Origin: Chloroflexota bacterium
Lineage (GTDB): Bacteria; Chloroflexota; Limnocylindria; QHBO01
DNA: 64,000 bases
Assembly (NCBI GenBank): GCA_038040195.1
Contig: JBBPIR010000001.1
Coordinates: 489,141 to 553,140 of the forward strand
Reading direction: 5' to 3'
Both the position numbers and the translations under genes were made by a program. Each line of letters starts with the position of its first letter. The stretch's first letter is position 1. The notes beneath the pieces are model-generated. The model was not told the origin of the DNA and did no database searches. It was given only the letters and a program-made list of their open reading frames with translations. Shown piece by piece: positions 4,505 to 52,199 of the stretch.

Positions 4505-4529
4505 GTCTCCACTCCCTTCGGTTTGCCGG

Positions 4530-4742: not shown

Positions 4743-4896
4743 GGGCCGATAAACCTCCGTGCTCTGGGGCGACTGGTGTCGGAACTAACGCCCGTGAGAT
4801 CATCGAGTGGGACGCTGGCTTCGTCAAGCCCTTAGGTCCCTCCTGAGCACGGGTAAAGATGCAAACTGCAAGGATGCAAACCGGATTGAGGACGAG

Positions 4897-5745: not shown

Positions 5746-5765
5746 CTGAGTAGCCGCCCTCGACC

Positions 5766-5800
5766 GATGAGCAGAAGGCCCTGCTCGTCGAGCGCTTCCG
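5766..5800. terminator. candidate bidirectional terminator hairpin between convergent genes
   Basis: imperfect inverted repeat ctcgaccgatgagcag...ctgctcgtcgag located between stop of metallopeptidase (+) and stop of prk (-). Confidence 0.25.
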
Positions 5801-5809
5801 GCAGTGGGT

Positions 5810-6805
5810 TCAGCCGCTCGCCGCCGCCGAGGCCGCGGAGGCTCCGAACGTCAACCCGCGCTCCAAGCCGGCCTGCACGACCTGATAGGCGATGAGGAGT
5901 TGCGTGAGCGCCAGCGGGTCGGAGTGCCGCTCCACGCTGCCGTCGAGGTAACTGCCGATCTCCCCGGGACGGAGGTGACGATGCGTCTCCATGTGCGCCC
6001 AGATTCGCTCATCGAGCTCGAGAGAGCGTGAGGGCGAAACCGCTCCGTCGATCTCCAGGATGGAAGCGCCCGTAGCGTCCGCCTCCTGCTCGAGGCGAAT
6101 CGGGGGTGGCTCGTCCGCGGCGGCGCTCGCCAACACGTCGCCGAGGTCGAGCCGAGGAAGCCCAGGGCCGAGCCTGAGACGCACGTTCAGATGGGCGTCG
6201 TGATCGACGGCGGTTCCGGCCCGGAAATAGCCGGCCGGTGGGTAGAACTGGACGAGCATATCGGCGTACGCGCGCTGGGGTGCGAGGTACCGCCGATGGT
6301 CATCGCGCCTGTCGACGATCTGGCGGATGACTTCCGGCACGCTGTATCCGCGCTCCGCGCAGTCCCGCTTAACCTTCCAGGCCCACTTCAGCTCCTCCTG
6401 CGGCTGCAGCCACACGCGAACATCAAACGCGTTTCGCAGGTTCGCGGTCATCAGCGGAAAGAGGCCGCGGATGACGACGATCTCGCGCGGCTCGACATCC
6501 TCGCGCTGGCCGAAGGTCCCCGTCGAGTGGTCATAAGTTGGCTTCGAGATGGTCTCGCCGCGTGCAACAGCGGCGACCTGTCGCGCCATGAGCTCAATGT
6601 CGTTCGCGGCCGGGTTGAGGGCGGTCACGCCGAGCCGCTTGCGCTCTGCTCGGTCCAGCTTGTGGTAATCGTCGAGGCACAGGTTGGTGATCCGCTCCGC
6701 GCCGAAGATCCGATACAGGCCCCTGACCAGCGTCGTCTTGCCGCTGCCGCTGTCGCCTCCCACGGCCACCATGATCGGGCGATGGAAGTTCGTCGCCGCC
6801 ATCAA
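5810..6805 (-). CDS. prk: phosphoribulokinase
   Basis: 331 aa; P-loop GDSGSGKTT; strong similarity along length to cyanobacterial/bacterial PRK (ICLDDYH, ISKPTYDH, KWAWKVKRDCAERGYS); immediately downstream of rbcL on same strand. Confidence 0.85.
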   Translation of the reverse strand: MMAATNFHRPIMVAVGGDSGSGKTTLVRGLYRIFGAERITNLCLDDYHKLDRAERKRLGVTALNPAANDIELMARQVAAVARGETISKPTYDHSTGTFGQREDVEPREIVVIRGLFPLMTANLRNAFDVRVWLQPQEELKWAWKVKRDCAERGYSVPEVIRQIVDRRDDHRRYLAPQRAYADMLVQFYPPAGYFRAGTAVDHDAHLNVRLRLGPGLPRLDLGDVLASAAADEPPPIRLEQEADATGASILEIDGAVSPSRSLELDERIWAHMETHRHLRPGEIGSYLDGSVERHSDPLALTQLLIAYQVVQAGLERGLTFGASAASAAASG

Positions 6806-35649: not shown

Positions 35650-36009
35650 ATGGACCAGACCGGGCTGCTCTACGTCCTGGGATTCGGCTTCGCCGCCACG
35701 ACGTTCGTGTTCGGCACGATTCTGTTCTCGTGGCTGATCACGCATCGGCGCAAAGAGGCCCAGAAGGGGCTGCCCTACGAGTGCGGGATCGACACCATCG
35801 GTGACACCTGGTCCCGCTTCGGGCTGGCGTTCTACCTGTACGCCCTGCTGTTCGTGGCCTTCGACGTGGAGATCATCTTCATCTACCTCTGGGCGATCGT
35901 GATTCGCGACCTCACGCTCACCGGCATGATCCTGATGGGGATCTTCCTGGTGGTCCTGATGTACGGCGAGTTCTACGCCTGGAAGAAGGGTGACCTGAAA
36001 TGGCGATAA
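35650..36009 (+). CDS. nuoA: NADH-quinone oxidoreductase subunit A
   Basis: 119 aa, 3 TM, PYECG motif. Confidence 0.85.
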
Positions 36010-36629
36010 CAACCGCTCCCCGAGCTGACGAGCCGATCGTCATCCCCGACGCGGCCGGCGACGATCCGCTGCTGGGCGAGTTCGGGATGGAGAACCACCC
36101 CCAGGGTGGGTTCCATGGCCTGCTGGAGGTCATCCCCACCCGGGCCGATTACATCCTGGACCTGATCCGGGCCAACTCGCTGTGGCCGCTCCTGTCCGGC
36201 CTGTCGTGCTGCGCCATCGAGATGATGAGCACCGCCACCAGCGTCAACGACATCGACCGATTCGGGATGTTCCCGTTCCGCGCCTCGCCGCGCCAGGCTG
36301 ACGTCCTGATCGTGGCCGGCACCCTGACCACCAAGATGGCCGGTCCGCTGGTGCGCCTGTGGCAGCAGATGCCGGAGCCCAAGTGGTGCGTCGCCATGGG
36401 CACCTGCACCACCTCCGGCGGACGCTTCAAGCGCAGCTACAGCGTCGTCCAGGGCGTGGACCGGGTCATGCCGGTCGACGTCTACGTGCCGGGTTGCCCG
36501 CCGCGCCCCGAAGGCCTGATCTACGGGCTGATGAAGCTCCAGGAACTGGTCAAGCAACGCCGCGGCCAGTGGGCCACCTATGCCGACCGGGGTCCGGACC
36601 TCCGATCCTGGGAAGGAGACGTGCGCTGA
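36000..36629 (+). CDS. nuoB: NADH-quinone oxidoreductase subunit B
   Basis: [27 protein letters not shown]2 cluster motifs. Confidence 0.85.
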
Positions 36630-37204
36630 GCGCACCGGCCGCGGCGGGCCCGCTGGTCCGGCTGCTGGGCGACCGGCTCGCCGACGCGGCGAGCGAACTG
36701 TGGACCGACGAGGACACGGTCGAGATCCAGGTTCCCCGCGACAAGATCGTCGATTCGCTCCGCACCCTGCGCGACGACGCGGACTTCGGCTTCTTCTTCC
36801 TGGCCGATGCGGCCGCGGTCGACTACGGGGTCGGCAACTGGTTCGAGGTCGTCTACCACCTGTACTCGGACCGCCACCCCACCTGGCTGCGGGTCCGGGT
36901 CAAGGTTGACCGCGAGAATCCGGTGACGCCCAGCATCACCTCGCTGTGGGAAGGGGCGATGTTCCACGAGCGCGAGATGTACGACATGATGGGCATCGTC
37001 TTCGAGGGCAACCGCGACCTGCGGCGGATCTACATGTCGCCGGACTACCGGTCCTTCCCGCAGCGCAAGGACTTCCTGCTCCCCGATGACGCCGCCGATT
37101 CCGCCGCCGCCGGCAACCGCCCGCTGGAGCGGCCCGAGACCTGGGACCTGAGCAAGCTGGCGGACGCCGCCGCGCACCGCGACGAGCCGGGAGGCCCGGT
37201 GTGA
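36569..37204 (+). CDS. nuoC: NADH-quinone oxidoreductase subunit C (30 kDa)
   Basis: [29 protein letters not shown]; start uncertain (GTG 36569 overlapping nuoB, no canonical start right after nuoB stop). Confidence 0.75.
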
Positions 37205-38484
37205 CGACCACCAAGCCGCCGCAAGCTGAGGACGCGGAGGAGCCACGCTCCGACGAGCCGCGCATCCCCGACCCGCTGGTATTGGACGCCATGGCCACCG
37301 GCGCGCCGCGCCAGGAGTTCTTCGGCTTCGACATCGTCCCGCCCCCCGACCGGCCGCCCCAGACCGAGCGCGAGCAGGAGGTCTACACCCTCGGCGACGG
37401 CGAAATGCTCGTCAACATGGGCCCCCAGCACCCCTCCACCCACGGCGTGATGCGCCTGGTGGTCAAGGTCCGCGGCGAGGTGGTCATCGACATCGACCCT
37501 GTGCTCGGCTACCTGCACCGAGGGATCGAGAAGCTGTGCGAAGAGGCCACCTACACCACGGTCCTGACCTACGTGGACCCCATGGACTACATGTCGGCCA
37601 TGCACAACGAGCACGCGCCGGCGATCGCGTTCGAGAAGCTGTACGGGATCCAGGCACCGCGCCGGGCGGAGTACATCCGGGCCCTGGTGGTCGAGCTGAA
37701 CCGGGTGTTCAGCCACGGCCTGATGATGGGCTTCCTGGCGCTCGACATCGGCGGCCTGACTCCCATCCTGTACGGCTTCATCAACCGCGACGAGGTGGTC
37801 GAGATGCTGGCCGCCATCTCCGGCCAGCGGATGCTGTTCAACTTCTTCCGAGTGGGCGGCGTGAACTTCGACACCAATGACGAGTTCATGTCGCGCCTCG
37901 GCCGATGGCGGGCCAACGTCCTGGACAACGTCGAGATGAACGAGAAGATCCTGACCGATAACGAGATCTTCCGGGCTCGGACCAGGGGGATGGGCACCCT
38001 GAGCGGCAAGGAAGCGATAGCTCTGGGGGTCAGCGGACCCAATCTGCGGGCCAGCGGGGTGCCGTTCGACGTCCGCAAGGCCCACCCGTACTGCATCTAC
38101 AACGAGCTCGAGTTCGACGTCATCACCCACACCGAGGGCGACACCTATGCCCGCTACATGCAGCGCATCGCGGAGCTGAAGCAGTCCATCCACCTTATCG
38201 ACCAGATCGTGGACAAGATGCCCCACGGCCCGGTCCAGGCCCAGGTGCCGGGGATCATCCGCCCTCGCCCCGGACGCGCCTATGCGGCCATCGAGTCGCC
38301 CCGTGGGCTGTACAGCGTGTACGCCATCAGCGACGGCGGCCCGAACCCGTATCGGTTCCGCATGCGCGACCCGAGCTTCATCAGCCTGCAGGTCATGCCC
38401 AAGCTCATGCCCGGGCACCTCATCGCCGACACCATGGCGATCATGGCCAGCCTGGATCCGATCATGGGCGGCGTGGACAAGTAG
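37201..38484 (+). CDS. nuoD: NADH-quinone oxidoreductase subunit D (49 kDa)
   Basis: 427 aa; MGPQHPSTHGVMRL, full-length NuoD. Confidence 0.9.
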   Translation: MTTTKPPQAEDAEEPRSDEPRIPDPLVLDAMATGAPRQEFFGFDIVPPPDRPPQTEREQEVYTLGDGEMLVNMGPQHPSTHGVMRLVVKVRGEVVIDIDPVLGYLHRGIEKLCEEATYTTVLTYVDPMDYMSAMHNEHAPAIAFEKLYGIQAPRRAEYIRALVVELNRVFSHGLMMGFLALDIGGLTPILYGFINRDEVVEMLAAISGQRMLFNFFRVGGVNFDTNDEFMSRLGRWRANVLDNVEMNEKILTDNEIFRARTRGMGTLSGKEAIALGVSGPNLRASGVPFDVRKAHPYCIYNELEFDVITHTEGDTYARYMQRIAELKQSIHLIDQIVDKMPHGPVQAQVPGIIRPRPGRAYAAIESPRGLYSVYAISDGGPNPYRFRMRDPSFISLQVMPKLMPGHLIADTMAIMASLDPIMGGVDK

Positions 38485-38493
38485 GGGGCCGAA

Positions 38494-39513
38494 ATGGATC
38501 CGGCGACCATCGAAACCCTGCTCGGCGTCGGCCGTTTCGTGGCGGCAACGACCCTGCTGCTGCTGCTGACCGTGCCGACCGCGTTCATCGTGGGCCAGCT
38601 GGAGCTGAAGATCATCGCCCTCATGCAGCTCCGCTACGGCCCCAACCGGGTCGGCCCGCGCGGGATGTTCCAGAGCGCGATCCACGGCTTCAAGATCCTG
38701 GCCAAGGAGGACCAGACGCCGGATCGAGCCGACGTCCCGGTCTTCACCCTGGCGCCGTGGATGGTGTTCATGGCGGCCGCCATGAGCATGCTGGTCATCC
38801 CGTTCGCCCCGGGCCTTGTGGCCTTCGACTCCGACATCGGCGTCATCTACTTCTTCGCCATCATCGGTCTGTCGGTGGTCGGGATGCTGGTCGCCGGTTG
38901 GGCCAGCTACAACAAGTACGCGCTGCTGGGCGGGCTGCGGAGTGCGGCCCAAATGGTCAGCTACGAGATCCCGTTGACCCTGTCCATCGTGGGCGTGGTG
39001 GTCCTGACCGGGACGTTGTCGTTCACCCACATCGTCGAATGGCAGCTGGAGCACGGCTGGGCGGTCATCTGGCAGCTGGTCGGCTTCCCGATCTTCTTCA
39101 TCGCCGCCGCCGCGGAGATCAACCGCACCCCGTTCGACATGGTGGAGGCCGATTCGGAGATCGTGGCCGGCCCGTTCACCGAGTACTCGGGCATGCGATT
39201 CGGTTTCTTCTATTTTGCGGAGTACGTCGCACTTTTCATCATGTGCGGCATCCTGGTCACCCTCTTCTTCGGCGGGTGGCTGGCGCCGTGGCCCTTCCCG
39301 GCCCAGCTGGACGGCTTCGCCGGCACCGTCTACGGCCTGGTCTGGTTCTTCCTGAAGACGTACATCTTCGTGTTCATCGCGATCTGGGTGCGGGCTACCC
39401 TGCCCCGCGTGCGAGTCGACCAGCTCATGGGCATGGCCTGGAAGGCGCTCCTCCCGCTGGCGCTCATCAATCTGTTCGTGACCGCCGCGGTGGTCCTGAT
39501 CTTCAAGCTGTGA
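38494..39513 (+). CDS. nuoH: NADH-quinone oxidoreductase subunit H
   Basis: 339 aa, 8 TM, RYGPNRVGP and FFYFAEY motifs; follows nuoD directly (no nuoEFG between). Confidence 0.9.
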   Translation: MDPATIETLLGVGRFVAATTLLLLLTVPTAFIVGQLELKIIALMQLRYGPNRVGPRGMFQSAIHGFKILAKEDQTPDRADVPVFTLAPWMVFMAAAMSMLVIPFAPGLVAFDSDIGVIYFFAIIGLSVVGMLVAGWASYNKYALLGGLRSAAQMVSYEIPLTLSIVGVVVLTGTLSFTHIVEWQLEHGWAVIWQLVGFPIFFIAAAAEINRTPFDMVEADSEIVAGPFTEYSGMRFGFFYFAEYVALFIMCGILVTLFFGGWLAPWPFPAQLDGFAGTVYGLVWFFLKTYIFVFIAIWVRATLPRVRVDQLMGMAWKALLPLALINLFVTAAVVLIFKL

Positions 39514-39524
39514 TGGCCTGACAC

Positions 39525-40373
39525 ATGGCGATCCCCGGCTCCGGCCTGCTCACCGGCATGGGCGTCACCCTGCGCAACCTCTTCCGCCCCAAGGTGACGC
39601 AGCAGTACCCCGAGGTGCGCCCCGCCATGGCGGAGCGTTGGCGGGGTCGGCTGGACCTGATCTACGACCCGTTCGGGGAGCACAAGTGCGAGGTCTGCTT
39701 CCAGTGCGCCATGGTGTGCCCGGTGGAAGCCATTGACATGAGCGGCTTCGACTCGCAGGGCAACAAGATCCGATACGGGCTGCCCGAGATCTACGACGAG
39801 CGCCGGGACCCCAACGCCTTCCGACGGGCCGGCCTTCCATCCAGACCGATGCGCAACGCGGCGCGCTGGGAGGAAGCGGTAGATGACGCCTGGGTCGACC
39901 AGGTCGTAGATGGATTTGGCGGGCGTCCGGAGTCGCTGGTGGCCATCTTCGTCGCGGTCCAGACCCGATACGGGTACCTGCCCGAGCCCGCGTTGCGCCG
40001 GATCAGCGACAGGATGACGATCCACTGGGCCCAGGTCTTCGGGGCTGCCGGGCTGGGCGGCTTCCGGCTGCTGCCGACCGAGGGGCACCTGGTCACGGTG
40101 TGCGACTGCGCCGCGTGCCGCTTCGCCGGAGGCGACAAGCTCCTGGCGGCCCTGGAGGAGGAGCTGGGGGTACGGGCCGGGGAGACGACCGATGACGGCG
40201 CATTCACCCTGGAGACCGATGCGAGCGTGGGAGCGGGCGCGATTGCGCCGGCGGTGCGGATCGACACCCTGGTATACGGGCCGCTCAACGTCGACGAGGC
40301 ACGCCACCTGATCTACGCCCGGCGGGCGGAGAAGTCCCGCGCCGAGAAGCTCGGCGCCGGGGCGAGCGCCTGA
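39525..40373 (+). CDS. fusion: NuoI N-terminal half (one 4Fe-4S motif) + NuoE-like thioredoxin-fold domain with incomplete 2Fe-2S ligand set
   Basis: aa 1-87 match NuoI N-half (TQQYPEVRP, GEHKCEVCFQCAMVCPVEAIDM, RYGLPEIY); remainder matches NuoE (VQTRYGYLPEP, VTVCDCAAC, GETTDDGAFTLE) but the second Cys pair reads TDASVGAG. Confidence 0.65.
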   Translation: MAIPGSGLLTGMGVTLRNLFRPKVTQQYPEVRPAMAERWRGRLDLIYDPFGEHKCEVCFQCAMVCPVEAIDMSGFDSQGNKIRYGLPEIYDERRDPNAFRRAGLPSRPMRNAARWEEAVDDAWVDQVVDGFGGRPESLVAIFVAVQTRYGYLPEPALRRISDRMTIHWAQVFGAAGLGGFRLLPTEGHLVTVCDCAACRFAGGDKLLAALEEELGVRAGETTDDGAFTLETDASVGAGAIAPAVRIDTLVYGPLNVDEARHLIYARRAEKSRAEKLGAGASA

Positions 40374-41719
40374 TGGCGGCCGGCCTCTCCCCGCAGATCC
40401 GGATCCTCCCCGGCGGGGAGCACCGCCTGCTGGCCGGGATCGGGAAGCTGGACCCCGAGTCGCTGGCTGCGTACCGCAAGGCCGGTGGCTACCGCGGCCT
40501 GACCCGCGCCATCACCAAGCTCTCCCCCGACGAGGTCATCACCGAGATCTTCGCGTCCCGCCTCCGCGGCCGAGGGGGCGCTGGGTTCCCGGTGGCCGAC
40601 AAGTGGCGCGCCACCCGTTCCGCCCCCGGTGAGCGGAAGATCGCGGTCGCCAACCTGATGGGCGCCGACCCGACATCGCTGGGGGATCGGGCGCTGGCCG
40701 AGGGCAACCCCCACCTCGTCCTGGAGGGGCTGCTCATCGCCGCCGCCGCGGTGGGGGCCTCGGAGGCCATTCTGGCCGTGCGGCGCGACTGGACCGCGGG
40801 CATCGAGCGCCTCCGCAAGGCGGCGGCGGATGCCGAGGCCGCCCACCTGGCGGGCTACCTCATCCTGGGCACCGACGTATCGGTCCAGGTGTCGGTGTGG
40901 GAAGGCTCCGGCGCCTACGTGGCGGGGGAGGAGACGGCCCTCATCCACGCCCTCCAGGGCGACCGCGGCATGCCGCTCATCCGCCCCCCGTATCCTGCCG
41001 CGCGCGGGCTGTGGGGCGTCCCGACGCTGGTCCACAACGGCGAGACCCTGGCCCACGTGGCCTGGATCCTGGGCCACTCGGCAGGCGACTTTGCCAAGGT
41101 CGGGCCCGAGGAGGCGCCGGGCACCAAGCTGGTCACCATCGCCGGCGCGGTGCGCAACCCGGGTCTGGCGGAGGTCGCGATGGGCACCGTGGTCGCCGAC
41201 ATCGTCAAGCTGGCCGGCGGGTCGACCGGGACCGTGAAAGCCGCGTTCGTGGGTGGACCGGGTGCCGGCGCGCTGGCTGCCAACGAACTGTCTGACACGG
41301 GCTACGAATACGGCGCGCTGGGCGCCGCCGGCGCTCACATCGGTTCGGGATCGGTCCTGGTCACCGACGCCGCCACCTGCATGGTGGCCACCGCCCGCTT
41401 CCTGCTGGACTACTCCGCGCGCGAGGCATGCGGAAAGGCCGTCCCGTGCCGGATCGGTCCGTTGCGGCTGGTTGAGATCCTGGACCGCATCCTGGCCGCC
41501 ACCCCGCGCCCCAACGACCTGGTCCTGCTGCGCGAGCTGTCGGCCAAGATCGCCGACACCGCCCTGTGCCGCCTCGAATCGCTCGCCCCCAAACCCATGC
41601 TCACCACCCTGGATCGCTTCGAGGACGAGTACCGCGCCCACGCCGAGCGGGGCGTTTGCCTGGCGGGCTCGTGCAAGACGGACCCGGTCTCCCCGTTGCT
41701 GGCGCCGCTGGCGTCATAG
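40373..41719 (+). CDS. NuoF-like (51 kDa) flavoprotein with degenerate N3 Fe-S motif
   Basis: 448 aa; SRLRGRGGAGFPVADKW FMN site, GEETALIHALQGDRGMPLIRPPYPA, GTKL; Fe-S motif EACGKAVPCRIG has only 3 of 4 conserved Cys. Confidence 0.7.
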   Translation: MAAGLSPQIRILPGGEHRLLAGIGKLDPESLAAYRKAGGYRGLTRAITKLSPDEVITEIFASRLRGRGGAGFPVADKWRATRSAPGERKIAVANLMGADPTSLGDRALAEGNPHLVLEGLLIAAAAVGASEAILAVRRDWTAGIERLRKAAADAEAAHLAGYLILGTDVSVQVSVWEGSGAYVAGEETALIHALQGDRGMPLIRPPYPAARGLWGVPTLVHNGETLAHVAWILGHSAGDFAKVGPEEAPGTKLVTIAGAVRNPGLAEVAMGTVVADIVKLAGGSTGTVKAAFVGGPGAGALAANELSDTGYEYGALGAAGAHIGSGSVLVTDAATCMVATARFLLDYSAREACGKAVPCRIGPLRLVEILDRILAATPRPNDLVLLRELSAKIADTALCRLESLAPKPMLTTLDRFEDEYRAHAERGVCLAGSCKTDPVSPLLAPLAS

Positions 41720-41729
41720 GATTGGACCG

Positions 41730-44114: not shown

Positions 44115-44155
44115 ATCCGAGCCCGGGCCGGCGCTGGGCGGTATCCTCGGGCGGA

Positions 44156-44560
44156 ATGACCGATCTTCCCCAGCAGCCGATCGAGATGATCCTGCTCCGC
44201 CAGCTGTCGGAGCACCTGTCCATTCCGATGTGGGTCATCGACGGCGAGGGGGATCTCGTCTTTTTCAACGAGGCGGCCGAGCCGACCCTCGGCGTGCGGG
44301 CCGACGACGTTGACCAGATGCCGTTCGAGACCTGGACCACGTCCTTCCGGCCCCGGGATCTATCGGGCAATCCGCTGCCGCCCGAGGCGCTGCCCCCGAT
44401 CATCGCGCTGCGAAAGGGGGAACCGGCCCATGCCACGATCGAGATCACGGGCGGGGATGGGGTCGCGCGCCGGATCGGCGTCACCGCCTTCCCGCTGACC
44501 GGCGGCCACGGCGACATCATGGGCTCGGTGACGATGTTCTGGGAGTCCCCCAAGGCGTGA
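44156..44560 (+). CDS. PAS domain protein
   Basis: 134 aa single PAS-like fold (PMWVIDGEGDLVFFNEAAE...GGHGDIMGSV). Confidence 0.5.
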   Translation: MTDLPQQPIEMILLRQLSEHLSIPMWVIDGEGDLVFFNEAAEPTLGVRADDVDQMPFETWTTSFRPRDLSGNPLPPEALPPIIALRKGEPAHATIEITGGDGVARRIGVTAFPLTGGHGDIMGSVTMFWESPKA

Positions 44561-45402
44561 TCGTCCGTCTGTGGGGCACCCGCGGGTCGGTGGCGGCCGC
44601 CGGCCCCCAGACCGCGCGCTATGGCGGCAACACGGCCTGCGTGGAGGTGCGCGGCGACGATGGGACGCTGCTCGTCCTCGACGCGGGGACCGGCATCCAG
44701 CGCCTGGGCGCTGAGGTCGCGATGGAGGCGGGGCGGATCGACATCCTGCTGACCCACCTCCACATGGACCACATCCAGGGCCTGGGCTTCTTTGCCCCGA
44801 TCTTTCGCCCCGGCTGCGAGATCCACATCTGGGGTCCGCCCTCGCCGACGCTCCATCTGCGCGCCCGCCTGACGCGCTACCTCTCCCCGCCCCTGTTCCC
44901 CATCCGCTTGCGCGACCTGCGTGCCAACTTCGACTTTCACGATGCTCCACAGGAGCCGTTCCGGATCGGTCCATTCACCATCCTGGCCGATGAGGTCATC
45001 CATCCCGGCGCGACCCTCGGCTTTCGGGTCAGCGAGAACGGCCGTTCCCTGGCCTACCTGAGCGACCACGAGCCGGCGCTCGGGACGGGGAACGGAGATG
45101 GCAACACATCCTGGGTGAGCGGGCTGCGCCTGGCGCGCGGGGCGGACGTGCTCATCCACGACGCCCAATACACGAACGAAGAGCGTGCCGAGCGGCTGGG
45201 CTGGGGCCACTCATCGGTCGGCGAGGCCATTGCCTTCGCGCGCCGCGCCCAGGTCGGCAAGCTGGTCCTGTTCCACCACGATCCGGCACGAACCGACGAT
45301 CAGATGGACGTCCTGGCCATGGCGGCCGCGGACCTGGCCGCGTCCACCGCCAACGGCCTGCAGGTGACCGCCGGGCGCGAGGGCGATCAGCTCTTGCCGT
45401 AG
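44557..45402 (+). CDS. MBL-fold metallo-hydrolase
   Basis: HLHMDH metal-binding motif, D and H residues downstream (SDHEP, HHD); embedded in nuo operon. Confidence 0.65.
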   Translation: MIVRLWGTRGSVAAAGPQTARYGGNTACVEVRGDDGTLLVLDAGTGIQRLGAEVAMEAGRIDILLTHLHMDHIQGLGFFAPIFRPGCEIHIWGPPSPTLHLRARLTRYLSPPLFPIRLRDLRANFDFHDAPQEPFRIGPFTILADEVIHPGATLGFRVSENGRSLAYLSDHEPALGTGNGDGNTSWVSGLRLARGADVLIHDAQYTNEERAERLGWGHSSVGEAIAFARRAQVGKLVLFHHDPARTDDQMDVLAMAAADLAASTANGLQVTAGREGDQLLP

Positions 45403-45432
45403 AATCGGTCACGGCCTCTCGAGCGAGGCCGT

Positions 45433-45975
45433 GTGAGCGCTCGGTCTCGAACGGGAGCCTCGACTCTGGACATCTCGACCGTCCTCTTCGTGGTGCTCGC
45501 CGCCGGCGTCCTCGGCGGCGGCCTGGCGGCCGTCCTGCTGCGGAACGTGATCCATTCCGCGGTGGCCATGATGGTCTCTTTCGGAGCCCTGGCGGGCACG
45601 TACGCCCTGCTCGGCGCGCCCATCGTGGCCGCCGCCCAGGTCCTCATCTACCTGGGGGCCATCAGCGTCCTGATCCTGTTCGCGATCATGCTGACCCAGG
45701 CCGGCGACGCCAACCTGCCGGCACCTTTCCAGCGCCAGGCGCCGTTCGCGGCCCTGGTCGCCATCGGGATCGTGGCCCTCGTCGGTTGGGCCCTGCTCCA
45801 GACCGACTGGCCCAACCCCAGCGTGATCATCCCGGTCGAGCTCGACGCCCTGGCCGCCGCCCTCTTCAACGACTACGCGCTGCCGTTCGAGATCGTGGGC
45901 TTCCTGTTGCTGGCCGCCATCATCGGCGCCATCTACCTCGCCCGACGGCCCGAAGAAGACGAGCGGATGAACTGA
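45433..45975 (+). CDS. nuoJ: NADH-quinone oxidoreductase subunit J
   Basis: 180 aa, 5 TM, VLIYLGAISVLILFAIML. Confidence 0.8.
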   Translation: MSARSRTGASTLDISTVLFVVLAAGVLGGGLAAVLLRNVIHSAVAMMVSFGALAGTYALLGAPIVAAAQVLIYLGAISVLILFAIMLTQAGDANLPAPFQRQAPFAALVAIGIVALVGWALLQTDWPNPSVIIPVELDALAAALFNDYALPFEIVGFLLLAAIIGAIYLARRPEEDERMN

Positions 45976-45978
45976 CCG

Positions 45979-46287
45979 ATGGGCCTCAACGGCTACCTGT
46001 TCCTGTCACTCGCCCTGTTCGGGATCGGGGCCTTCGGCTTCCTGGCCCGACGCAACGCGATCATGATGCTGATCTGCATCGAGCTCATGTTGAACGCGGT
46101 CAACCTGGCCCTGGTGGCCTTCAACGCGTTCGATTATTACGCCACCGATGACGCGGGCGCCGTCTTCTCGCTGCTCGTGATGGCCGTCGCGGCAGCCGAG
46201 GCGACGGTCGGCCTGGCCCTGGTCATCGCGATCATCCGCACCCGTCAGACCGCCGAGGTCGACGACTACGCCGATCTGAAGGAGTAA
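45979..46287 (+). CDS. nuoK: NADH-quinone oxidoreductase subunit K
   Basis: 102 aa, 3 TM, conserved Glu in CIELMLNAVNL and AAAEATVGLALV. Confidence 0.85.
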   Translation: MGLNGYLFLSLALFGIGAFGFLARRNAIMMLICIELMLNAVNLALVAFNAFDYYATDDAGAVFSLLVMAVAAAEATVGLALVIAIIRTRQTAEVDDYADLKE

Positions 46288-46354
46288 CGCGCTGGACCTG
46301 CAGTCGCTCGTCGCCCTGATCCCGGCCCTGCCGCTGGCCGGCTTCCTGTTCGCG

Positions 46355-48529
46355 GTGCTGGTTGGGCCGCGCTTCGACCGCATTCCGGAGCACGCCGAGC
46401 ACGATGACGAGCACGGCGCCGGGGCCGGTCACGACACGGGCGGCGACGCGCACGCCTCCCACGCCGAGGCGGTCGACGAGTCCGGGTACCGCGGCGTCCC
46501 GACCGAGGAGGAGCAGCGCGAGACCTCGCCCCACCGGGGCCACGCCGACGACCTGGCCAACGCCAACGGGGCCGATGGGATCATCCCCGACGAGCTGAAC
46601 GACGGGCGCGGGCAGCCCGGTCACGTGACGCCCGGCGGGCCGCGGCCGGTCTACCGCTCGTGGTGGGTCCCGGTCGCATTGGTGGCCGTGGCCTGGGCCG
46701 CGTCAATGGCCATCTTCGGCGCGGTCATCTTCGGAGGCGCCGAGTACCGGGTCACCGTCTACGAGTGGATCGTGTCGGGTGATTTCCGGATCGAGATCAC
46801 GTTCTTCGTGGACGCGCTGACCGCGGTCCTGCTGCTGGTGGTCAGCACGGTGGGCCTGCTGGTCCACGTCTATTCCATCGGCTACATGGACGGCGACCGC
46901 AGCGTCTGGCGCTTCTTCGCCTACCTGAACCTGTTCATGTTCAGCATGCTGCTGCTGATCCTGGCCGACAACTTCCTGCTCCTGTACGTGGGCTGGGAGG
47001 CGGTCGGCCTGTGCTCGTACCTCCTCATCGGCTACTGGTACAAGAAGCCGTCCGCGGCAGGAGCCGCCAAGAAGGCGTTCATCGTCAACCGGGTCGGCGA
47101 CTTCGGTTTCGGGCTGGGCGTGATCCTGATCTGGACCCTGCTCGGCACGCTGACGTTCGACGAGGTGTTCGCGGGGATCGGCGGCCTCGAGGGCTGGCAG
47201 ATCACCCTCATCGCCCTGCTCCTGTTCGCAGGGGCAGTGGGCAAGAGCGCCCAGTTCCCGCTGCACGTCTGGCTCCCGGACGCGATGGAGGGCCCCACCC
47301 CGGTCAGCGCCCTCATCCACGCCGCGACCATGGTCAACGCCGGGGTGTACCTGGTCGCCCGCGCCAACCCGATCTTTGCCCACTCGCCGGAGGCAATGGG
47401 CGTGGTGGTCGCGATCGGGGTGTTCACCGCCGTCCTGGCGGCGGCCATTGCGGTCACCCAGAACGACATCAAGAAGGTGCTGGCCTACTCGACCGTCAGC
47501 CAGCTGGCGTACATGTTCTTCGGGCTGGGGATCGGGGCCTGGGCGGCGGCCATCTTCCACCTGCTGACCCACGGCTTCTTCAAGGGCCTGCTGTTCATGG
47601 CTTCCGGATCGGTCATCCACGGGGCCGGCGGGGAGCAGGACATGCGCTTCATGGGCGGCCTCCGGGAACGCATGCGCTGGACGTACGGGACCATGCTCGT
47701 GGGGGCCCTGGCGCTGGCCGGGATCCCGATCTTCGCGGGGTTCTTCAGCAAGGACGAGATCCTGTCGGAGGCCTTCGCCCGCGGCTACCCGATCTACTGG
47801 GCGGTGGGCATCGGGGTCGCGTTCCTGACCGCGTTCTACACCTTCCGGATGATCTTCATGACCTTCCACGGCTCGTGGCGCGGGCCGGCGGCCGCCTGGA
47901 AGCACGTCCACGAGAGCGCGCGGACGATGGTCGCGCCGCTCGTCATCCTGGCCGTCCCTACCGCGCTGGCCGGGCTCCTGCTGGGCATTCCGCCCGAGGG
48001 CGGCACGATCCATCTGTGGCTGGAGGAGGTCTTCGCCAGTGCTGAGGGGCTCGGGGCCGGTATCCAGCCCGGCTCGATCCTGGCGGAGGCCATGGAGCAC
48101 GGGGAGGCGCACGGCTTCGAGCTGTTCGGCCTTGGCGGGCTGCTGCTGCTGGCCGGGGCGTCGGTCGGCCTGGCCGGCATCCTGCTCGCCCGGCGCTGGT
48201 ACATCCAGGATCCCGAGGCGCCCGCGCGTTTTGTGGAGCGCTTCCCGTTCGGGCTGGGGCCGGGCATGTACCGGGCCAGCCTGAACAAGTACTACTTCGA
48301 CGACCTGTACCAGCTCATCTTCGCTCGCGGCGGCGTGGTGCTTTCAAATGCCCTGTGGTGGTTCGACGTGAAGGTCATCGACGGGGCGGTGAACGGCGTC
48401 GGCTGGTTGGCCCAGCGCCTGGGCGGCGGGTTGCGCAGGTCCCAGACCGGGCGGGTCCAGAACTACGGATTGGGGATCGCGGCCGGGTTGGTCATCGTCC
48501 TGCTGGTCTATGCCACGGTGGTGCGCTGA
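46355..48529 (+). CDS. nuoL: NADH-quinone oxidoreductase subunit L (with atypical His/acidic-rich insertion; start uncertain)
   Basis: 724 aa; antiporter-like core plus long C-terminal helix region; TM1-like sequence appears in a different frame just upstream. Confidence 0.8.
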   Translation: MLVGPRFDRIPEHAEHDDEHGAGAGHDTGGDAHASHAEAVDESGYRGVPTEEEQRETSPHRGHADDLANANGADGIIPDELNDGRGQPGHVTPGGPRPVYRSWWVPVALVAVAWAASMAIFGAVIFGGAEYRVTVYEWIVSGDFRIEITFFVDALTAVLLLVVSTVGLLVHVYSIGYMDGDRSVWRFFAYLNLFMFSMLLLILADNFLLLYVGWEAVGLCSYLLIGYWYKKPSAAGAAKKAFIVNRVGDFGFGLGVILIWTLLGTLTFDEVFAGIGGLEGWQITLIALLLFAGAVGKSAQFPLHVWLPDAMEGPTPVSALIHAATMVNAGVYLVARANPIFAHSPEAMGVVVAIGVFTAVLAAAIAVTQNDIKKVLAYSTVSQLAYMFFGLGIGAWAAAIFHLLTHGFFKGLLFMASGSVIHGAGGEQDMRFMGGLRERMRWTYGTMLVGALALAGIPIFAGFFSKDEILSEAFARGYPIYWAVGIGVAFLTAFYTFRMIFMTFHGSWRGPAAAWKHVHESARTMVAPLVILAVPTALAGLLLGIPPEGGTIHLWLEEVFASAEGLGAGIQPGSILAEAMEHGEAHGFELFGLGGLLLLAGASVGLAGILLARRWYIQDPEAPARFVERFPFGLGPGMYRASLNKYYFDDLYQLIFARGGVVLSNALWWFDVKVIDGAVNGVGWLAQRLGGGLRRSQTGRVQNYGLGIAAGLVIVLLVYATVVR

Positions 48530-50057
48530 CATGAGCGGCCTGCCGGTGCTGTCGCTGATCGTCTTCACGCCGCTGCTCGGCGTGGCGGCCCTGCTGTTCG
48601 TGCCGGGCACCAACCATCGGCTCATCCGCTGGGTGGCCCTGCTGGCGGCCATGGGAAGCCTGGGCTTCAGCCTATTCCTGGTGGGCTACGACCCCGCCGG
48701 GGCGGAGTTCCAGTTCCGCGAGGACCTTCCCTGGATCAGCGCATTCGGGATCCGCTACCAGCTGGGGGTGGACGGCATGAGCGCAGTGCTGGTGCTGCTC
48801 ACCACGGTCCTGAGCGTGGTCAGCATCCTGTACTCCTGGGGGCCGATCCAGATGCGGGTCAAGGAGTACTACGCCGCGATGCTGCTCCTGATGGCCGGCA
48901 TGCTCGGCGTCTTCGTGGCGCTCGACCTGTTCGTGTTCTACGTTTTTTGGGAGCTGAGCCTGATCCCGATGTACCTGGTGATCGGGATCTGGGGTGGGCC
49001 GCAGCGCATTTACGCCACGCTGAAGTTCGTCATCTACACGCTGGTCGGCTCGCTCCTCATGCTGGTCGCCATCCTGGCCGTGGTCATCGCCAACGCCAAC
49101 CTCCCGGGCGGGACGTTCACGTTCAGCTACGAGGCCCTGCGCGGCGTCCCCTTCCCCGATCTGCTCCAGGCTGGCGCATTCATCGCGTTCGGGCTGGCCT
49201 TTGCCATCAAGGTACCGATGTGGCCGTTCCACACCTGGCTGCCCGATGCTCACGTGGAGGCCCCGACCGCGGGCTCCATCATCCTGGCCGGGGTCCTGCT
49301 CAAGCTGGGCGGCTACGGGTTCCTGCGATTCAGCCTGCCGCTGCTGCCCGACGCGGCCCAGTCCTTCGCGCCGCTCATGATCGGCCTGGCCTTGATCGCC
49401 ATCATGTATGGCGCGCTGGTGGCCATGGTCCAGCCCGATCTGAAGAAGCTGATCGCCTACTCGAGCGTGTCGCACATGGGCTTCGTGATGCTGGGGGCGT
49501 TCGTCTTCAACACCCAGGGCCTGCAGGGCGCGATCTTCCAGATGGTCAGCCACGGGATCACGACCGGCGCCCTGTTCCTCTTGGTGGGCGTCATCTATGA
49601 ACGCACCCACGACCGGCTGATCAGCCACATGGGCGGTCTGAACGCCCGCCTGCCGGCCTACGCCGCCCTGTTCGGGCTGTTCACCTTCGCGAGCATCGGC
49701 TTACCAGGCTTGTCGGGGTTCGTGGGCGAGTTCCTGGTCATGCTCGGCGCTTTCCAGTACTCGGCCTGGGTGGGGGCCTGGGCCATGCTGGTCGTGATAG
49801 CCAGCGCGGTCTACATGCTGTGGATGTTCCAGCGCGCCTTCTTTGCCGTGCCGTCGGACTGGATGCGCCGGGCCTGGGGCGGCCTGCATGACCTGACCCG
49901 GGTCGAGTGGCTGTCGCTGGCCCCACTGGTGGTCCTGGTGGTGGCACTGGGGGTGTTCCCGGCCCCCGTCCTGGAGGCCACCGCCGGGCCGGTGCAGCGC
50001 ATCCTCGACGCGGTCCAGGGCGCCGCGGGGCTCAACCTGGTCGCCTGGCCGTGGTGA
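48510..50057 (+). CDS. nuoM: NADH-quinone oxidoreductase subunit M
   Basis: 515 aa antiporter-like, WLPDAHVEAPTAGS motif. Confidence 0.85.
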   Translation: MPRWCADMSGLPVLSLIVFTPLLGVAALLFVPGTNHRLIRWVALLAAMGSLGFSLFLVGYDPAGAEFQFREDLPWISAFGIRYQLGVDGMSAVLVLLTTVLSVVSILYSWGPIQMRVKEYYAAMLLLMAGMLGVFVALDLFVFYVFWELSLIPMYLVIGIWGGPQRIYATLKFVIYTLVGSLLMLVAILAVVIANANLPGGTFTFSYEALRGVPFPDLLQAGAFIAFGLAFAIKVPMWPFHTWLPDAHVEAPTAGSIILAGVLLKLGGYGFLRFSLPLLPDAAQSFAPLMIGLALIAIMYGALVAMVQPDLKKLIAYSSVSHMGFVMLGAFVFNTQGLQGAIFQMVSHGITTGALFLLVGVIYERTHDRLISHMGGLNARLPAYAALFGLFTFASIGLPGLSGFVGEFLVMLGAFQYSAWVGAWAMLVVIASAVYMLWMFQRAFFAVPSDWMRRAWGGLHDLTRVEWLSLAPLVVLVVALGVFPAPVLEATAGPVQRILDAVQGAAGLNLVAWPW

Positions 50058-50064
50058 GACCGGT

Positions 50065-51516
50065 ATGAACGACCCCGCGGCGCTGTACGCGCTCCTGCCC
50101 GAGGTGGCCCTGGCCATCTCGGTCCTGGTGATCATCACCGTCGACCTGTTCCTTCCCCGGGAGCGCAAGTGGCTGCTGACCCCGCTGACCGTGGCCGGCC
50201 TGGCGGCCACCGCGCTGGCCATCGGCGCGGTCTGGACCACCCCGCCCAGCGGGGCGTTGGCGGGAGGGGTCTATACCGTGGACCGGCTGGCGCTGGTGCT
50301 GAAGCTGGCGGCGGTCGGTATCGGCGTGTTGACGACCCTGTTCGCGCCGGGCTACCTGGTCGTCCGCCGCCTGCCGTTGGGCGAGTTCAACGCCATCCTG
50401 CTGTTCTCGACCCTGGGCATCTTCGTCCTGGCCAGCAGCGCGGATCTCATCACCCTGTTCCTCGGCCTCGAGCTGATGGTCATGCCAGCCTACCTGCTGG
50501 CCGCCTTCCACAAGACCGATCGGTTCAGCAACGAGGGCGGGCTGAAGTACTTCCTGCTCGGGTCATTTGCGAGCGCCATCCTCCTGTTCGGCATCGCCTG
50601 GACCTACGGCCTGACCGGCTCGACCGTGTTCACCGAGATCGCCGAGGTGTTCTCGGGCGGCTTGATGAACGGGGCGGTGCTGGTGGCGATCGGCTTCCTG
50701 ACCGTGGGGGCGACCTTCAAGGCGGCGGCGGTGCCGTTCCACTTCTGGACTCCGGACGCCTACCAGGGCGCCCCGACGCCCATCACCGGGTTCCTGTCAG
50801 TAGGCCCCAAGCTGGGGGCCTTTGCCCTGCTGCTGCGCCTCTTCGGGGAAGCGCTCGGCCCGTTGCGCACCGACTGGCTGGACGTGTTCGTCGTGCTGGC
50901 GGTGGTGACCATGACGTTTGGCAACGTGGTGGCCCTGACCCAGACCAACGTCAAGCGGATGCTGGCCTACTCCTCGATCGCCCATACCGGCTACATCCTG
51001 GCCGGGCTGGCGGCGTTTGCAGCAGCCACAGATCCAAAGGTTGCCACCGAGGCCATCGAGGCGGTCGTGTTCTACCTGGTCGGCTACTCGGTGATGAACA
51101 TCGCGGCTTTCGCGGTGGTCGGCATGCTGCAGCGCGACGTGCGCCGATACGGCGGATTGGGCTCATTCGCGGGCCTGGCCGGGCGTCAGCCGGCCCTGGC
51201 CGCAGCCATGACCGTCCTGCTCCTGTCGCTGACGGGCATCCCGCCCACGGTCGGGTTCTTTGCCAAGCTGTACGTCCTGCTGACGTCGGTCGACGCGGGC
51301 CTGGCCTGGCTGGCGGTGGCCATCGCCCTGAATGCCGCCCTGGCCGCGTTCTACTACCTGCGGGTGGTGGTCTACATGTACATGCGTGACCCGGAGGCTG
51401 AGCCGGCGGATGTGGAGCGCTCCGGGGTCGGCCGCCTGGCGCTGGGACTCAGCGTGGCCGGCGTGCTCCTGCTCGGCATCTTCCCCGGCATCCTGCTCGG
51501 GTGGCTGCCGGCTTGA
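50065..51516 (+). CDS. nuoN: NADH-quinone oxidoreductase subunit N
   Basis: 483 aa antiporter-like, FHFWTPDAYQGAPTP. Confidence 0.85.
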   Translation: MNDPAALYALLPEVALAISVLVIITVDLFLPRERKWLLTPLTVAGLAATALAIGAVWTTPPSGALAGGVYTVDRLALVLKLAAVGIGVLTTLFAPGYLVVRRLPLGEFNAILLFSTLGIFVLASSADLITLFLGLELMVMPAYLLAAFHKTDRFSNEGGLKYFLLGSFASAILLFGIAWTYGLTGSTVFTEIAEVFSGGLMNGAVLVAIGFLTVGATFKAAAVPFHFWTPDAYQGAPTPITGFLSVGPKLGAFALLLRLFGEALGPLRTDWLDVFVVLAVVTMTFGNVVALTQTNVKRMLAYSSIAHTGYILAGLAAFAAATDPKVATEAIEAVVFYLVGYSVMNIAAFAVVGMLQRDVRRYGGLGSFAGLAGRQPALAAAMTVLLLSLTGIPPTVGFFAKLYVLLTSVDAGLAWLAVAIALNAALAAFYYLRVVVYMYMRDPEAEPADVERSGVGRLALGLSVAGVLLLGIFPGILLGWLPA

Positions 51517-52199
51517 CCACCCGCCGTCCCCGGGGGCTGGCCCTCCCGCTGACCCTCGCCCTGCTGGGGGTGGTCCTGATCCTGTCCGGCCAACTGCCCC
51601 TGGACGAGGGCGCCCGCCCCAGCCTGGCGCCCATCCCGACCCCCAGCCTGGTGGCCCGGACCCAATCGCCCGGGGCCGAACCCTCGACGGATGGCACGCC
51701 CGAGGCCACCCCCGAAGCCACGCCGATCCCCAGCGACTGGGTGGCGACCCAGATCCAGGTCGAATCGGTGGGCGTCAATGTGGCTGTCCAGCGGCTCGCG
51801 CCAGGCCAGCCGCTCGGCGAGTGCTGCGCCTTCCTCCTCGCCCAGACCTCGGACCCGGGCCGCGGAACGAACTCGTACATCGTGGCGCACGCCCTGCGGC
51901 CGCTGTTCATCGGCCTGTGGAACGTCGAGCTTGGCGCCGAGGTGCGCATCCTGATGTCCGACGGCCAGGTCCTCCGCTACCGCGTGACCGAGGTCCACGC
52001 CAACGTGTCCTGCCCCGACCCGGACGCCGAGCCAATGCCGAGCCCGCCGTTGGACCTCCTCTATGCGGGCCCCGGGTGCGAGGAGGGAGGCCGCTGGACG
52101 GCGGCCACCGACCACGAACGGCTGACGCTCCAGACCTCCCAGGGCTTCAACCGCAACTGGGGCGAGTTGATCGTGGTCGCACTGCCCATCCAGCCCTGA
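51501..52199 (+). CDS. sortase-like membrane-anchored protein with Ser in place of catalytic Cys
   Basis: N-terminal signal-anchor; sortase-like order of elements (VESVGVNVAV, NSYIVAHA, RLTLQTSQGF, NRNWGELIVVA); TLxTC reads TLQTS. Confidence 0.35.
   Translation: MAAGLTTRRPRGLALPLTLALLGVVLILSGQLPLDEGARPSLAPIPTPSLVARTQSPGAEPSTDGTPEATPEATPIPSDWVATQIQVESVGVNVAVQRLAPGQPLGECCAFLLAQTSDPGRGTNSYIVAHALRPLFIGLWNVELGAEVRILMSDGQVLRYRVTEVHANVSCPDPDAEPMPSPPLDLLYAGPGCEEGGRWTAATDHERLTLQTSQGFNRNWGELIVVALPIQP

Follow-up and report, generated by a model that had tools for sequence, protein, structure and literature searches.

Complex I usually takes up electrons through one of three kinds of input module: NuoEFG, the F420/Fpo type or the ferredoxin/NDH-1 type. 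In the 64,000-nucleotide stretch of DNA analyzed here (the window), which comes from a Chloroflexota bacterium of the class Limnocylindria, the complex I (nuo) operon carries NuoE-like and NuoF-like parts whose iron-sulfur (Fe-S) sites lack canonical cysteine ligands. This was pointed out in the initial annotation of the window, which took it to mean that the NADH-side cofactor chain may be altered or partly non-functional. The locus raises the question of whether these gaps are errors, marks of decay or features of a different enzyme. In short, we found that the missing Cys residues are real and fixed across the whole class Limnocylindria, and are due neither to error nor to a pseudogene; that the proteins concerned, together with a third one, are the closest relatives of NfnC, NfnB and NfnA of NfnABC (PDB 9BOV), the soluble, electron-bifurcating NADH-dependent ferredoxin:NADP oxidoreductase of Caldicellulosiruptor saccharolyticus (Csac), and not ordinary NuoE and NuoF; and that nuoI is split, with this three-gene module within the split. 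We favor, as a rather probable reading of the sequences, a non-bifurcating, proton-pumping NAD(P)H:quinone complex I that would use an Nfn-(Bfu)-type input module placed in the split nuoI.

The three proteins are called P1, P2 and P3, and all are encoded on the + strand. P1 (39525..40373, 282 amino acids) is a fusion in which residues ~1-95 are the N-terminal half of NuoI and a NuoE/NfnC-like domain follows (~116-264). P2 (40373..41719, 448 amino acids), whose start shares one base with the stop of P1, is a short NuoF/NfnB-like flavoprotein with the Pfam domains Complex1_51K, SLBB and NADH_4Fe-4S. P3 (41730..44114, 794 amino acids) is an NfnA-like subunit with the C-terminal half of NuoI; its start was taken to be the ATG at 41730, as a longer open reading frame from 41253 would overlap P2.

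In the NuoE-like domain of P1, the motif VCDCAAC (40098-40118) contains C193-x-C195-x2-C198 (40101..40118), of which C193 and C198 form the first ligand pair of the N1a/C1 [2Fe-2S] site and C195 is an additional invariant Cys. The second pair (CxxxC) should stand within ETDASVGAGAIAP (40212-40250), but its place is occupied by S234 and G238 (40224..40238), as seen when three solved chains were aligned. The phmmer alignments of P1 to solved NfnC, HydC and NuoE chains have no gaps across the motifs: aSvGaGaiAP faces aClGcCslAP, C193 and C198 stand opposite the first Cys pair, and S234 and G238 stand opposite both Cys of the second. The N1a-type ligand set C-x4-C...C-x3-C is incomplete at this C1 site, with two of the four canonical Cys present. 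In P2, the N3/B1 motif EACGKAVPCRIG (41423-41458) has Ala356 (41438-41440) at the second Cys position. Its alignments to NfnB-, HydB-, NuoF- and HoxF-type chains are likewise gapless and set the motif opposite ESCGKCxyCRxG, with A356 opposite the second Cys of CxxCxxC. The fourth N3/B1 ligand, C399 (41567..41569, within TALCRL), is kept and invariant, so that the site has three of its four Cys. Cysteines merely shifted by indels are ruled out by the absence of gaps through both motifs against several solved chains. The glycine-rich loop RGRGGAGF for flavin mononucleotide (FMN) and NADH (40565..40588, P2 residues 65-72), which corresponds to loop 1 of Csac NfnB (residues 150-160; PMC11829005), and GEETAL (residues 185-190) are retained. 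The motif readings of the initial annotation hold at all of these places. Its C-x4-C pair is indeed present but includes the extra C195, hence C-x-C-x2-C, and its NuoE-like domain proved to be only the C-terminal portion of a longer fusion protein, which opens with ~95 residues that make up the first half of NuoI.

Conservation was assessed in 80 related loci from species-level genomes, nearly all of them metagenome-assembled genomes named Candidatus Limnocylindria or Chloroflexota; one of them is 99% identical to the window. The order nuoD-H-P1-P2-P3-...-nuoJ-K is kept in 80/80 of these loci. The homologues of P1 number >500, with 160 species genomes represented, and the operon occurs in >160 species-level genomes. 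In P2, C353, A356, C359 and C399 are invariant in 71/71 orthologues, and the whole modified motif EACGKAVPCRIG is 100% conserved among them. In P1, C193, C195, C198 and G238 are invariant in 81/81 orthologues, and the same Cys pattern is found in 120 metagenomic protein clusters. The ortholog comparison proposed in the initial annotation hence shows the altered positions to be common property of 71-81 species-level genomes. The ratio of nonsynonymous to synonymous substitution rates (dN/dS, by the Nei-Gojobori method, window against ten relatives) is 0.03-0.14 for the NuoE-like part and 0.08-0.22 for P2, and 0.10-0.22 for nuoD and 0.03-0.26 for nuoH. Both the N1a- and the N3-equivalent ligand sets are incomplete, so the NADH-side chain is altered as had been proposed; decay into a partly non-functional state is unlikely with dN/dS values in the range of nuoD and nuoH and a fully conserved N3/B1 motif.

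A sequencing or assembly error, or a pseudogene in one genome, has in its favor that a single nucleotide change would turn the codon of S234 or that of G238 into a Cys codon, and nothing else. It is hardly credible, because the same residues recur in 71-81 species-level genomes and in >100 metagenomic protein clusters, the frames are intact and purifying selection is strong. The codon of Ala356 (GCC) is two substitutions away from a Cys codon and lies outside any homopolymer run, which also answers the concern about homopolymer errors that the initial annotation had raised. It had also asked whether Asp or His could replace the lost ligands. Position 234 of P1 is mostly Asp, Glu, Asn or Ser across the 81 orthologues, but also Gln and Gly (D51/E12/N7/S6/Q3/G2). 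As for His, His188 is not supported as a fourth ligand; it is invariant in both Chloroflexota families that carry the module and absent from other lineages with CxCxxC, and it lies five residues upstream, at the start of a strand.

What kind of module do these proteins form? P1 matches PF01257, the thioredoxin-like [2Fe-2S] fold, over residues 125-263 (E 8.3e-25), and the NCBIfam models of NuoE, HoxE and FdsG match residues 117-264, with NuoE-like chains of the PDB on 116-272. The scores are low: the best NuoE model (NF005722) gives 80.7 bits against a cut-off of 141, and HoxE 87.4 against 224. The top PDB match is NfnC (9bov_C, E 2.1e-24). P2 matches the FMN/NADH-binding domain PF01512 (E 1e-31) and reaches 325.3 bits with the NuoF model TIGR01959, whose cut-off is 558.65; its top PDB match is NfnB (9bov_B, E 7.5e-113), well ahead of Thermus Nqo1 (9.3e-77). 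On Csac NfnB, P2 spans residues 107-525, without the N-terminal thioredoxin-like domain (B5) and the C-terminal 2x[4Fe-4S] domain (B3/B4). P3 matches NfnA best (9bov_A, E 5.7e-169, P3 residues 33-758), end to end with residues 2-699 of that chain, followed by 8oh5_C (1.8e-147) and 9n5u_A (2.2e-139), and it also matches PRK12814 (2Fe-2S plus GltD-like). In the PDB ranking for P1-P3, the 9bov chains C, B and A come first, then Stn, Nfn and Hyd chains, and none of the three proteins reaches the NCBIfam equivalog cut-off for NuoE, NuoF or GltD. The NuoE-like and NuoF-like parts are thus not subunits of a canonical NuoEFG N-module.

Some further features of P2 touch on this comparison. An invariant H...C-x4-C(/H) stretch in P2 (H423, C429 and C434; 41639-41674) aligns with the start of the region of the B2 (Zn) site of Bfu proteins, and this B2-like stretch is kept although the ferredoxin domain that lies next to it in NfnB is absent. 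A PDB search with a B5-type domain, aimed at the Zn-site pattern of B5 in Csac NfnB for comparison with CxCxxC, did not return 9bov_B.

From the N- to the C-terminus, P3 consists of a [2Fe-2S] domain, a GltD-type domain with two [4Fe-4S] clusters and a site for flavin adenine dinucleotide (FAD) and NADPH, three more Cys4 motifs and the C-terminal half of NuoI. The Cys residues of A1, A7, A6, A3, A2 and A4 and of the NuoI half are all invariant in 54/54 orthologues, and the FAD/NADPH fingerprints GxGxxG and YRR...MPA are present. P3 ends ~35 residues past the point where the Fdh-like domain starts in NfnA, with the NuoI half there instead. The fourth ligand of cluster A7 in Csac NfnA, Lys-170, aligns with His201 of P3 (42330-42332), which is invariant in 54/54 orthologues; Lys at this position is said to be conserved in all Bfu members (PMC11829005).

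The NuoI halves lie ~4.1 kb apart (39525-39809 and 43932-44114) on two proteins. NCBIfam NuoI models match P1 residues 9-79, PDB NuoI chains match residues 7-92, and positions 71-112 of TIGR01971 (NuoI) match the extreme C-terminus of P3. The first CxxCxxCxxxCP motif (C55-P66 of P1, 39687..39722) aligns to the first ferredoxin motif of TYKY/NuoI, and the second (C748-P759, nucleotides 43971-44006) lies in the C-terminal half carried by P3 (43932..44114). When P1 residues 1-94 and the last 60 residues of P3 were joined, the product aligned across the full length of NuoI/TYKY from plants, mammals, Thermus and E. coli (E 3.5e-21). All eight NuoI cysteines (C55, C58, C61 and C65 in P1; C748, C751, C754 and C758 in P3) are invariant. 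No intact nuoI occurs in the window or in the 80 related loci, each of which holds exactly two halves. Because the halves rebuild a full NuoI and no intact copy exists at these loci, nuoI is split around the module. The halves would have to re-associate to bind clusters N6a and N6b, and the split would thereby tether the module physically to complex I. An AlphaFold2 model of P1, based on an alignment of 19 orthologues, has a mean pLDDT of 57 and an unstructured NuoI half, which is expected because half a ferredoxin domain lacks its partner.

The soluble NfnABC complex suggests how electrons might run through such a module. For Csac NfnABC, it has been proposed that the path is FAD-A7-A6-A3-A2-A1-[B1-FMN-C1]-B3-B4-ferredoxin; that the minimal site of bifurcation is the 'flavobicluster' of B1 [4Fe-4S], FMN and C1 [2Fe-2S]; that C1 carries the low-potential electron to B3/B4; and that A2-A4-A5 is a dead-end branch into the Fdh-like domain (PMC11829005). 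By definition, all BfuABC enzymes share a BfuBC core of six Fe-S/metal sites, five in B (B1-B5) and one in C (C1) (PMC9304861). P2 and P1 fall short of this core, with no B5 and no B3/B4, with three of four Cys at B1 and with two of four at C1. B1 is the equivalent of N3, and C1 that of N1a; exactly these two sites are altered in the window, and the domains of B3/B4 and B5 are deleted.

In the mechanism that we favor, the Nfn-type P1-P2-P3 module would feed electrons into a complex I that otherwise has 11 subunits. NADPH would hand its electrons to the FAD in the GltD-like domain of P3, from where they would follow the Fe-S chain of P3 to N6a/N6b, N2 and quinone, bypassing both altered sites. 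The position of the NuoI half, at the start of the A5/Fdh-like domain, suggests by analogy that the A2-A4 branch, a dead end in the soluble enzyme, would here be the exit to N6a/N6b. P2 would probably be a second, NADH-linked entry (or an exit to NAD+), running from FMN through the 3-Cys cluster to the [2Fe-2S] cluster of P3. Since the altered sites would be bypassed, the consequence at the level of the enzyme would differ from what the initial annotation expected. The sequences themselves establish homology, architecture, the presence or absence of ligands, conservation and selection; cofactor identities, substrate use, direction and, by homology to the NfnABC structure, the electron path are inferred.

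The cofactors at the two altered sites may be considered separately. For B1/N3, a [3Fe-4S] cluster is predicted, or a [4Fe-4S] cluster with a non-protein ligand. The former prediction follows from the CxxAxxC...C pattern, and the cluster of the NuoF-like protein is probably [3Fe-4S]-like. Loss of the second Cys in CxxCxxC is the classical signature of natural [3Fe-4S] clusters, as in centre 3 of SdhB/FrdB and in Asp/Ala-type ferredoxins; for example, the ferredoxins of Pyrococcus and Desulfovibrio, which bind [3Fe-4S], have Asp at this position. Natural [3Fe-4S] sites share with P2 the arrangement C-x2-(non-Cys)-x2-C plus one remote Cys, and the strict conservation of the remaining three Cys. 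To our knowledge, no [3Fe-4S] cluster is known at the N3/B1 position beside a flavin. C1 has no electron partner now that the ferredoxin branch is gone; its three Cys might bind Zn or some other structural metal, or else a cluster of unusual type. A precedent is found in Csac NfnB, where B5, by fold a thioredoxin-like [2Fe-2S] site, binds Zn through three Cys and one Glu (PMC11829005). Like the site in P1, B5 is a thioredoxin-like fold reduced to three Cys and an acidic residue, but it lies in the N-terminus of the B subunit, not in a C subunit, and the fourth residue is not fixed in Limnocylindria.

The flavin and NADH site of P2 keeps much of its core. The RGRGG-G loop, K77, W78 and G185-E186-E187-T188 are invariant in 71 species, the loop ends in an aromatic residue (RGRGG-G-(F/Y/W), position 72 being Y, F or W), and the GSG loop is kept as well. 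The NADH contacts of Csac NfnB have counterparts throughout: F159 in Y/F/W72, G156 in G69, K164 in K77, E274 in E187 and F294 in Y/F207. In all short-B lineages (see below), the second shell is remodelled, with NADEGDPGAF changed to NLMGADPTSL and NNVET to (Q/H)N(A/G)ET, and the aromatic residue next to the flavin, before the GEET motif, varies in P2 (Y48/L23). On these residues, the site probably still binds FMN and NAD(H), with altered properties. Residues 93, 184 and 300 of P2 (nucleotides 40649-40651, 40922-40924 and 41270-41272) are Ala at places where long Bfu-type B subunits have an invariant, non-ligand Cys; positions 93 and 300 are Ala in nearly all Limnocylindria, and position 184 mostly so (A65/H5/S1). 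Cys may have been depleted near the P2 flavin.

The relatives of the module form a graded series. When P1 was searched against 1.84 billion cluster representatives, full-length fusions of a NuoI half and a NuoE domain were found down to 26% identity, in nuo operons with the same insertion. Proteins of the P0171 type (ferredoxin motif plus NuoE, 33% identity) were rejected as members of this split-NuoI family; they occur in soluble, POR-associated Nfn-Bfu operons, not in nuo operons. In all labelled lineages (L numbers), nuoH stands immediately upstream of the fusion, and in L081 and L087-L089 nuoJ is also seen downstream. Lineages L082, L088 and L089, one member of which is named Thermoleophilia, have a full Bfu-type B subunit with a thioredoxin-like N-domain, a canonical B1 motif (ESCGKCVPC) and a canonical C1 site (CxxxxC...CxxxC). 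The B subunits of L088 and L089 are 636-643 amino acids long, with the 2x[4Fe-4S] C-domain seen, and their A subunits end in a NuoI half; the B subunit of L082 is cut by the contig end. Lineage L087 (49% GC), with canonical B1 and C1, shows another solution to the same design, in which a NuoF-GltD fusion of 1048 amino acids is followed by a small protein of 265 amino acids that combines a NuoG-like N-terminal part with the C-terminal NuoI half (positions 2076-6023 of the L087 locus).

The short-B lineages differ from these in their ligands. L085 (B of 468 amino acids) has lost the third B1 Cys (EACGRCIPG) and has an extra Cys next to the fourth (LCGLC), and its C1 site combines CQCPAC with CxxxC. 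L081, the second Chloroflexota family (B of 441 amino acids), has ESCGKTIPC at B1, and CRCxxC with a single later Cys at C1. A read-through protein related to L081 (P0154) has Ser at the second B1 Cys position, and a regular-expression count gave CRCxxC in ~110/120 of the clusters listed for this family; another protein, P0175, has CQCPVC and one later Cys. Limnocylindria (B of 448 amino acids) have EACGKAVPC at B1 and CxCxxC only at C1. In this small sample, all long-B lineages (L082, L087, L088 and L089) have canonical B1 and C1, and all three short-B lineages (window, L081 and L085) combine CxCxxC with a B1 that departs from the canonical pattern. At C1, the gain of the middle Cys seems to precede the loss of canonical ones, since L085 has both CxCxxC and CxxxC. 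The series is compatible with ligand swapping followed by further reduction, and the Limnocylindria module reads as the derived, dismantled form, because no canonical ligand is missing from the same split-NuoI operon in relatives named Thermoleophilia. We tentatively propose, at somewhat less than even odds, that Limnocylindria, the second Chloroflexota lineage and the Thermoleophilia-named bacteria share an undescribed class of complex I, in which an NfnABC-type transhydrogenase inserted in a split NuoI would form a proton-pumping NADPH (plus NADH):quinone oxidoreductase, and that the lineage series records the dismantling of the B1-FMN-C1 flavobicluster, by loss of the ferredoxin branch, conversion of C1 into a 3-Cys metal site and conversion of N3/B1 into a [3Fe-4S] site.

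Several points weigh against the non-bifurcating NAD(P)H:quinone complex I proposed above. Its electron path is mapped from the order of domains and from a soluble homologue whose structure has been published; a [3Fe-4S] cluster at N3 might have too high a potential to feed a [2Fe-2S] cluster; position 234 of P1 is not fixed and includes Gly, so that no fourth ligand can be named; and with the FMN pocket remodelled and its flavin-adjacent aromatic variable, binding of FMN or NADH by P2 is not assured. In a rival reading, the NuoE- and NuoF-like parts are redox-dead scaffolds that hold P3 and the NuoI halves in place, with NADPH via P3 as the sole input. It would suit the replacement of acidic residues in the FMN pocket, the variable aromatic beside the flavin, the loss of the second C1 Cys pair, the variability of position 234, and the fact that P2 is the fastest-evolving subunit of the operon, with 66-72% identity where P3, the most conserved subunit, keeps 85-88%. 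A pure scaffold, however, needs no catalytic-site residues, and the RGRGG-G loop, K77, W78, E186-E187-T188, the 3-Cys motif with its flanks (EACGKAVPCRIG) and C399 are invariant in 71 species, the NADH contacts are kept, and dN/dS is as low as in nuoD and nuoH. We consider the scaffold unlikely.

The opposite possibility is that the cofactors are unchanged: N3 would remain a [4Fe-4S] cluster with water or hydroxide, the backbone or a neighbouring residue as ligand, N1a would remain a [2Fe-2S] cluster held by C193, C195 and C198 and an oxygen ligand at position 234, and the enzyme would be an ordinary NADH dehydrogenase with an added NADPH site. The invariance of C195 speaks for it, and so does the likeness of the lineage series to ligand swapping, in that CxCxxC precedes the loss of canonical Cys in L085 and, with one later Cys, in the second Chloroflexota family; L085 gains a Cys beside the fourth B1 ligand as it loses the third, L081 and its relative have Thr or Ser at the second B1 position, and most residues at position 234 could offer oxygen. 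Yet the invariant Ala356 cannot ligate iron, position 234 accepts Gly and Gln in a way that a true ligand would not, G238 is invariant, and replacement of the second Cys is what typifies [3Fe-4S] sites; we hold this reading to be quite improbable. A module that still bifurcates or confurcates, coupling NADPH, NADH and a low-potential carrier to quinone reduction as proposed for Nuo-Bfu, is very improbable. Its closest relatives are indeed the bifurcating NfnABC and StnABC, and the Thermoleophilia-named relatives with the same operon have a complete Bfu cofactor set; but the module has neither the B3/B4 nor the B5 domain and is short of the C1 ligands and one B1 ligand, HydABC no longer bifurcates once B3/B4 are deleted (PMC11829005), and the non-bifurcating homologues are those that lack B2-B5 (Schut et al. 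2022, PMC9304861).

The significance of the proposed NAD(P)H:quinone complex I lies in several directions. With a GltD-type NADPH dehydrogenase wired to the clusters of NuoI, NADPH would gain a direct path into the quinone pool that conserves energy, in a class that is abundant in lakes and soils. Limnocylindria are largely aerobic. The split NuoI suggests that two polypeptides can each contribute part of a 2x[4Fe-4S] ferredoxin domain, and that a domain shared in this way can serve for docking. Natural variants in which exactly B1 and C1 are altered, found beside relatives with the full set, make the role of each cluster testable by comparison. They also bear on the purpose of the off-pathway cluster N1a, as a complex I-type enzyme appears to manage without the canonical site.

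The remainder of the locus is that of a complex I operon. According to the list of open reading frames and Pfam matches, the operon nuoABCDH-P1-P2-P3-(insert)-nuoJKLMN extends over ~35650-51516 on the + strand. It begins with nuoA (35650..36009; Oxidored_q4, E 6.9e-32), nuoB (36000..36629; Oxidored_q6, E 1.6e-28), which has the tandem CC..C..CP ligands for cluster N2, nuoC (36626..37204, with an approximate start codon; Complex1_30kDa, E 4.8e-38), nuoD (37201..38484; Complex1_49kDa, E 9.6e-85) and nuoH (38494..39513; NADHdh, E 1.8e-110). After P3 come a PAS-domain gene and an MBL-fold gene (44156..45402), the product of the latter being of the hydrolase type, then nuoJ and nuoK (45433..46287; Oxidored_q3 and Oxidored_q2) and the genes of the antiporter-like subunits nuoL, nuoM and nuoN (46355..51516; Proton_antipo_M/N), all likewise on the + strand. 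The nuoL reading frame (46355-48529, 724 amino acids) has its Proton_antipo_N domain starting at residue 138, which indicates either an N-terminal extension or a start called too early. The PAS/MBL insert is seen only in the closest relatives (L002, L003 and L006-L012), and in other Limnocylindria this place is taken by unlike inserts, 0.1-5 kb in size; the insert is variable and probably lies outside the complex. A gene for a cyclic-di-AMP receptor (PF06153, 33474-33803) lies upstream of the operon, and a sortase-domain gene (51501-52199) directly 3' of nuoN. Among the comparison loci, L002, L014, L036, L044 and L079 are 76-96% identical to the window operon and come from metagenome-assembled genomes named Pleomorphomonadaceae, Steroidobacteraceae or Zixiibacteriota; these contigs probably belong to Limnocylindria and were binned wrongly.

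Among known systems, the module is most similar to NfnABC/StnABC (Csac 9BOV/9BP5, PMC11829005; Sporomusa ovata 8OH5, PMC10482914; archaeal 9N5U, PMC12018979). They have in common the gene order C, B, A; an A subunit that starts with a [2Fe-2S] domain, carries as an insertion a GltD/NfnL-like FAD-NADPH domain that binds two [4Fe-4S] clusters, and has additional clusters of the ferredoxin type; a B subunit with the FMN/NADH site and the B1 motif; and a C subunit with the thioredoxin-like domain. Unlike NfnABC, the module in the window is membrane-anchored through its fusion to both NuoI halves, P3 ends in the C-terminal half of NuoI where NfnA has its Fdh-like domain (A5, pterin remnant), P2 lacks the B5 and B3/B4 domains, B1 and C1 are short of canonical Cys (three of four and two of four), and the Lys ligand of A7 has become an invariant His.

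With canonical NuoEFG (Nqo2/Nqo1/Nqo3 of Thermus thermophilus; E. coli), the module shares homologous folds and the same positions of FMN, N3, N1a and N1b; P2 is short and free of extra ferredoxin domains like Nqo1, and delivery would likewise be to N6a/N6b of NuoI. The window differs in the incomplete N1a ligands, the three Cys at N3 and the scores below the NCBIfam NuoE and NuoF cut-offs; in P3, which, unlike NuoG, has a GltD FAD/NADPH insertion and no molybdopterin-like domain; in NuoI, which is split and fused to E-like and G-like subunits; and in the place of the module, which lies between nuoH and nuoJ, whereas the canonical N-module lies between nuoD and nuoH.

The nearest published arrangements are those in which the NADH module is replaced. 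In the predicted Nuo-Bfu complex I of Deferribacteres, Proteobacteria, Planctomycetes and Nitrospirae, a 14-gene nuoA-N cluster has BfuABC in place of nuoEFG (PMC9304861), and in NUO-2 of Nitrospina and Kuenenia a Bfu-like ABC set also takes this place (PMC3578206). In these complexes, the module stands at the usual nuoEFG position, nuoI is intact, the A subunit is NuoG-type without GltD, and B keeps all extra clusters; in the window, by contrast, an Nfn-type module sits in a split nuoI, and Limnocylindria lack the extra clusters. In an mbx-like operon, a GltD-related subunit occupies the place of NuoI (PMC4758237). Our literature search, the coverage of which was incomplete, so that earlier accounts may exist, returned no description of a split nuoI with halves fused to C-like and A-like subunits, of a complex I whose N-module is Nfn-type, or of a lineage in which exactly B1 and C1 are altered throughout. 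The components (complex I, the GltD domain, the NfnABC/Bfu module and cluster motifs with three Cys) are all already known; what appears to be new is their arrangement here.

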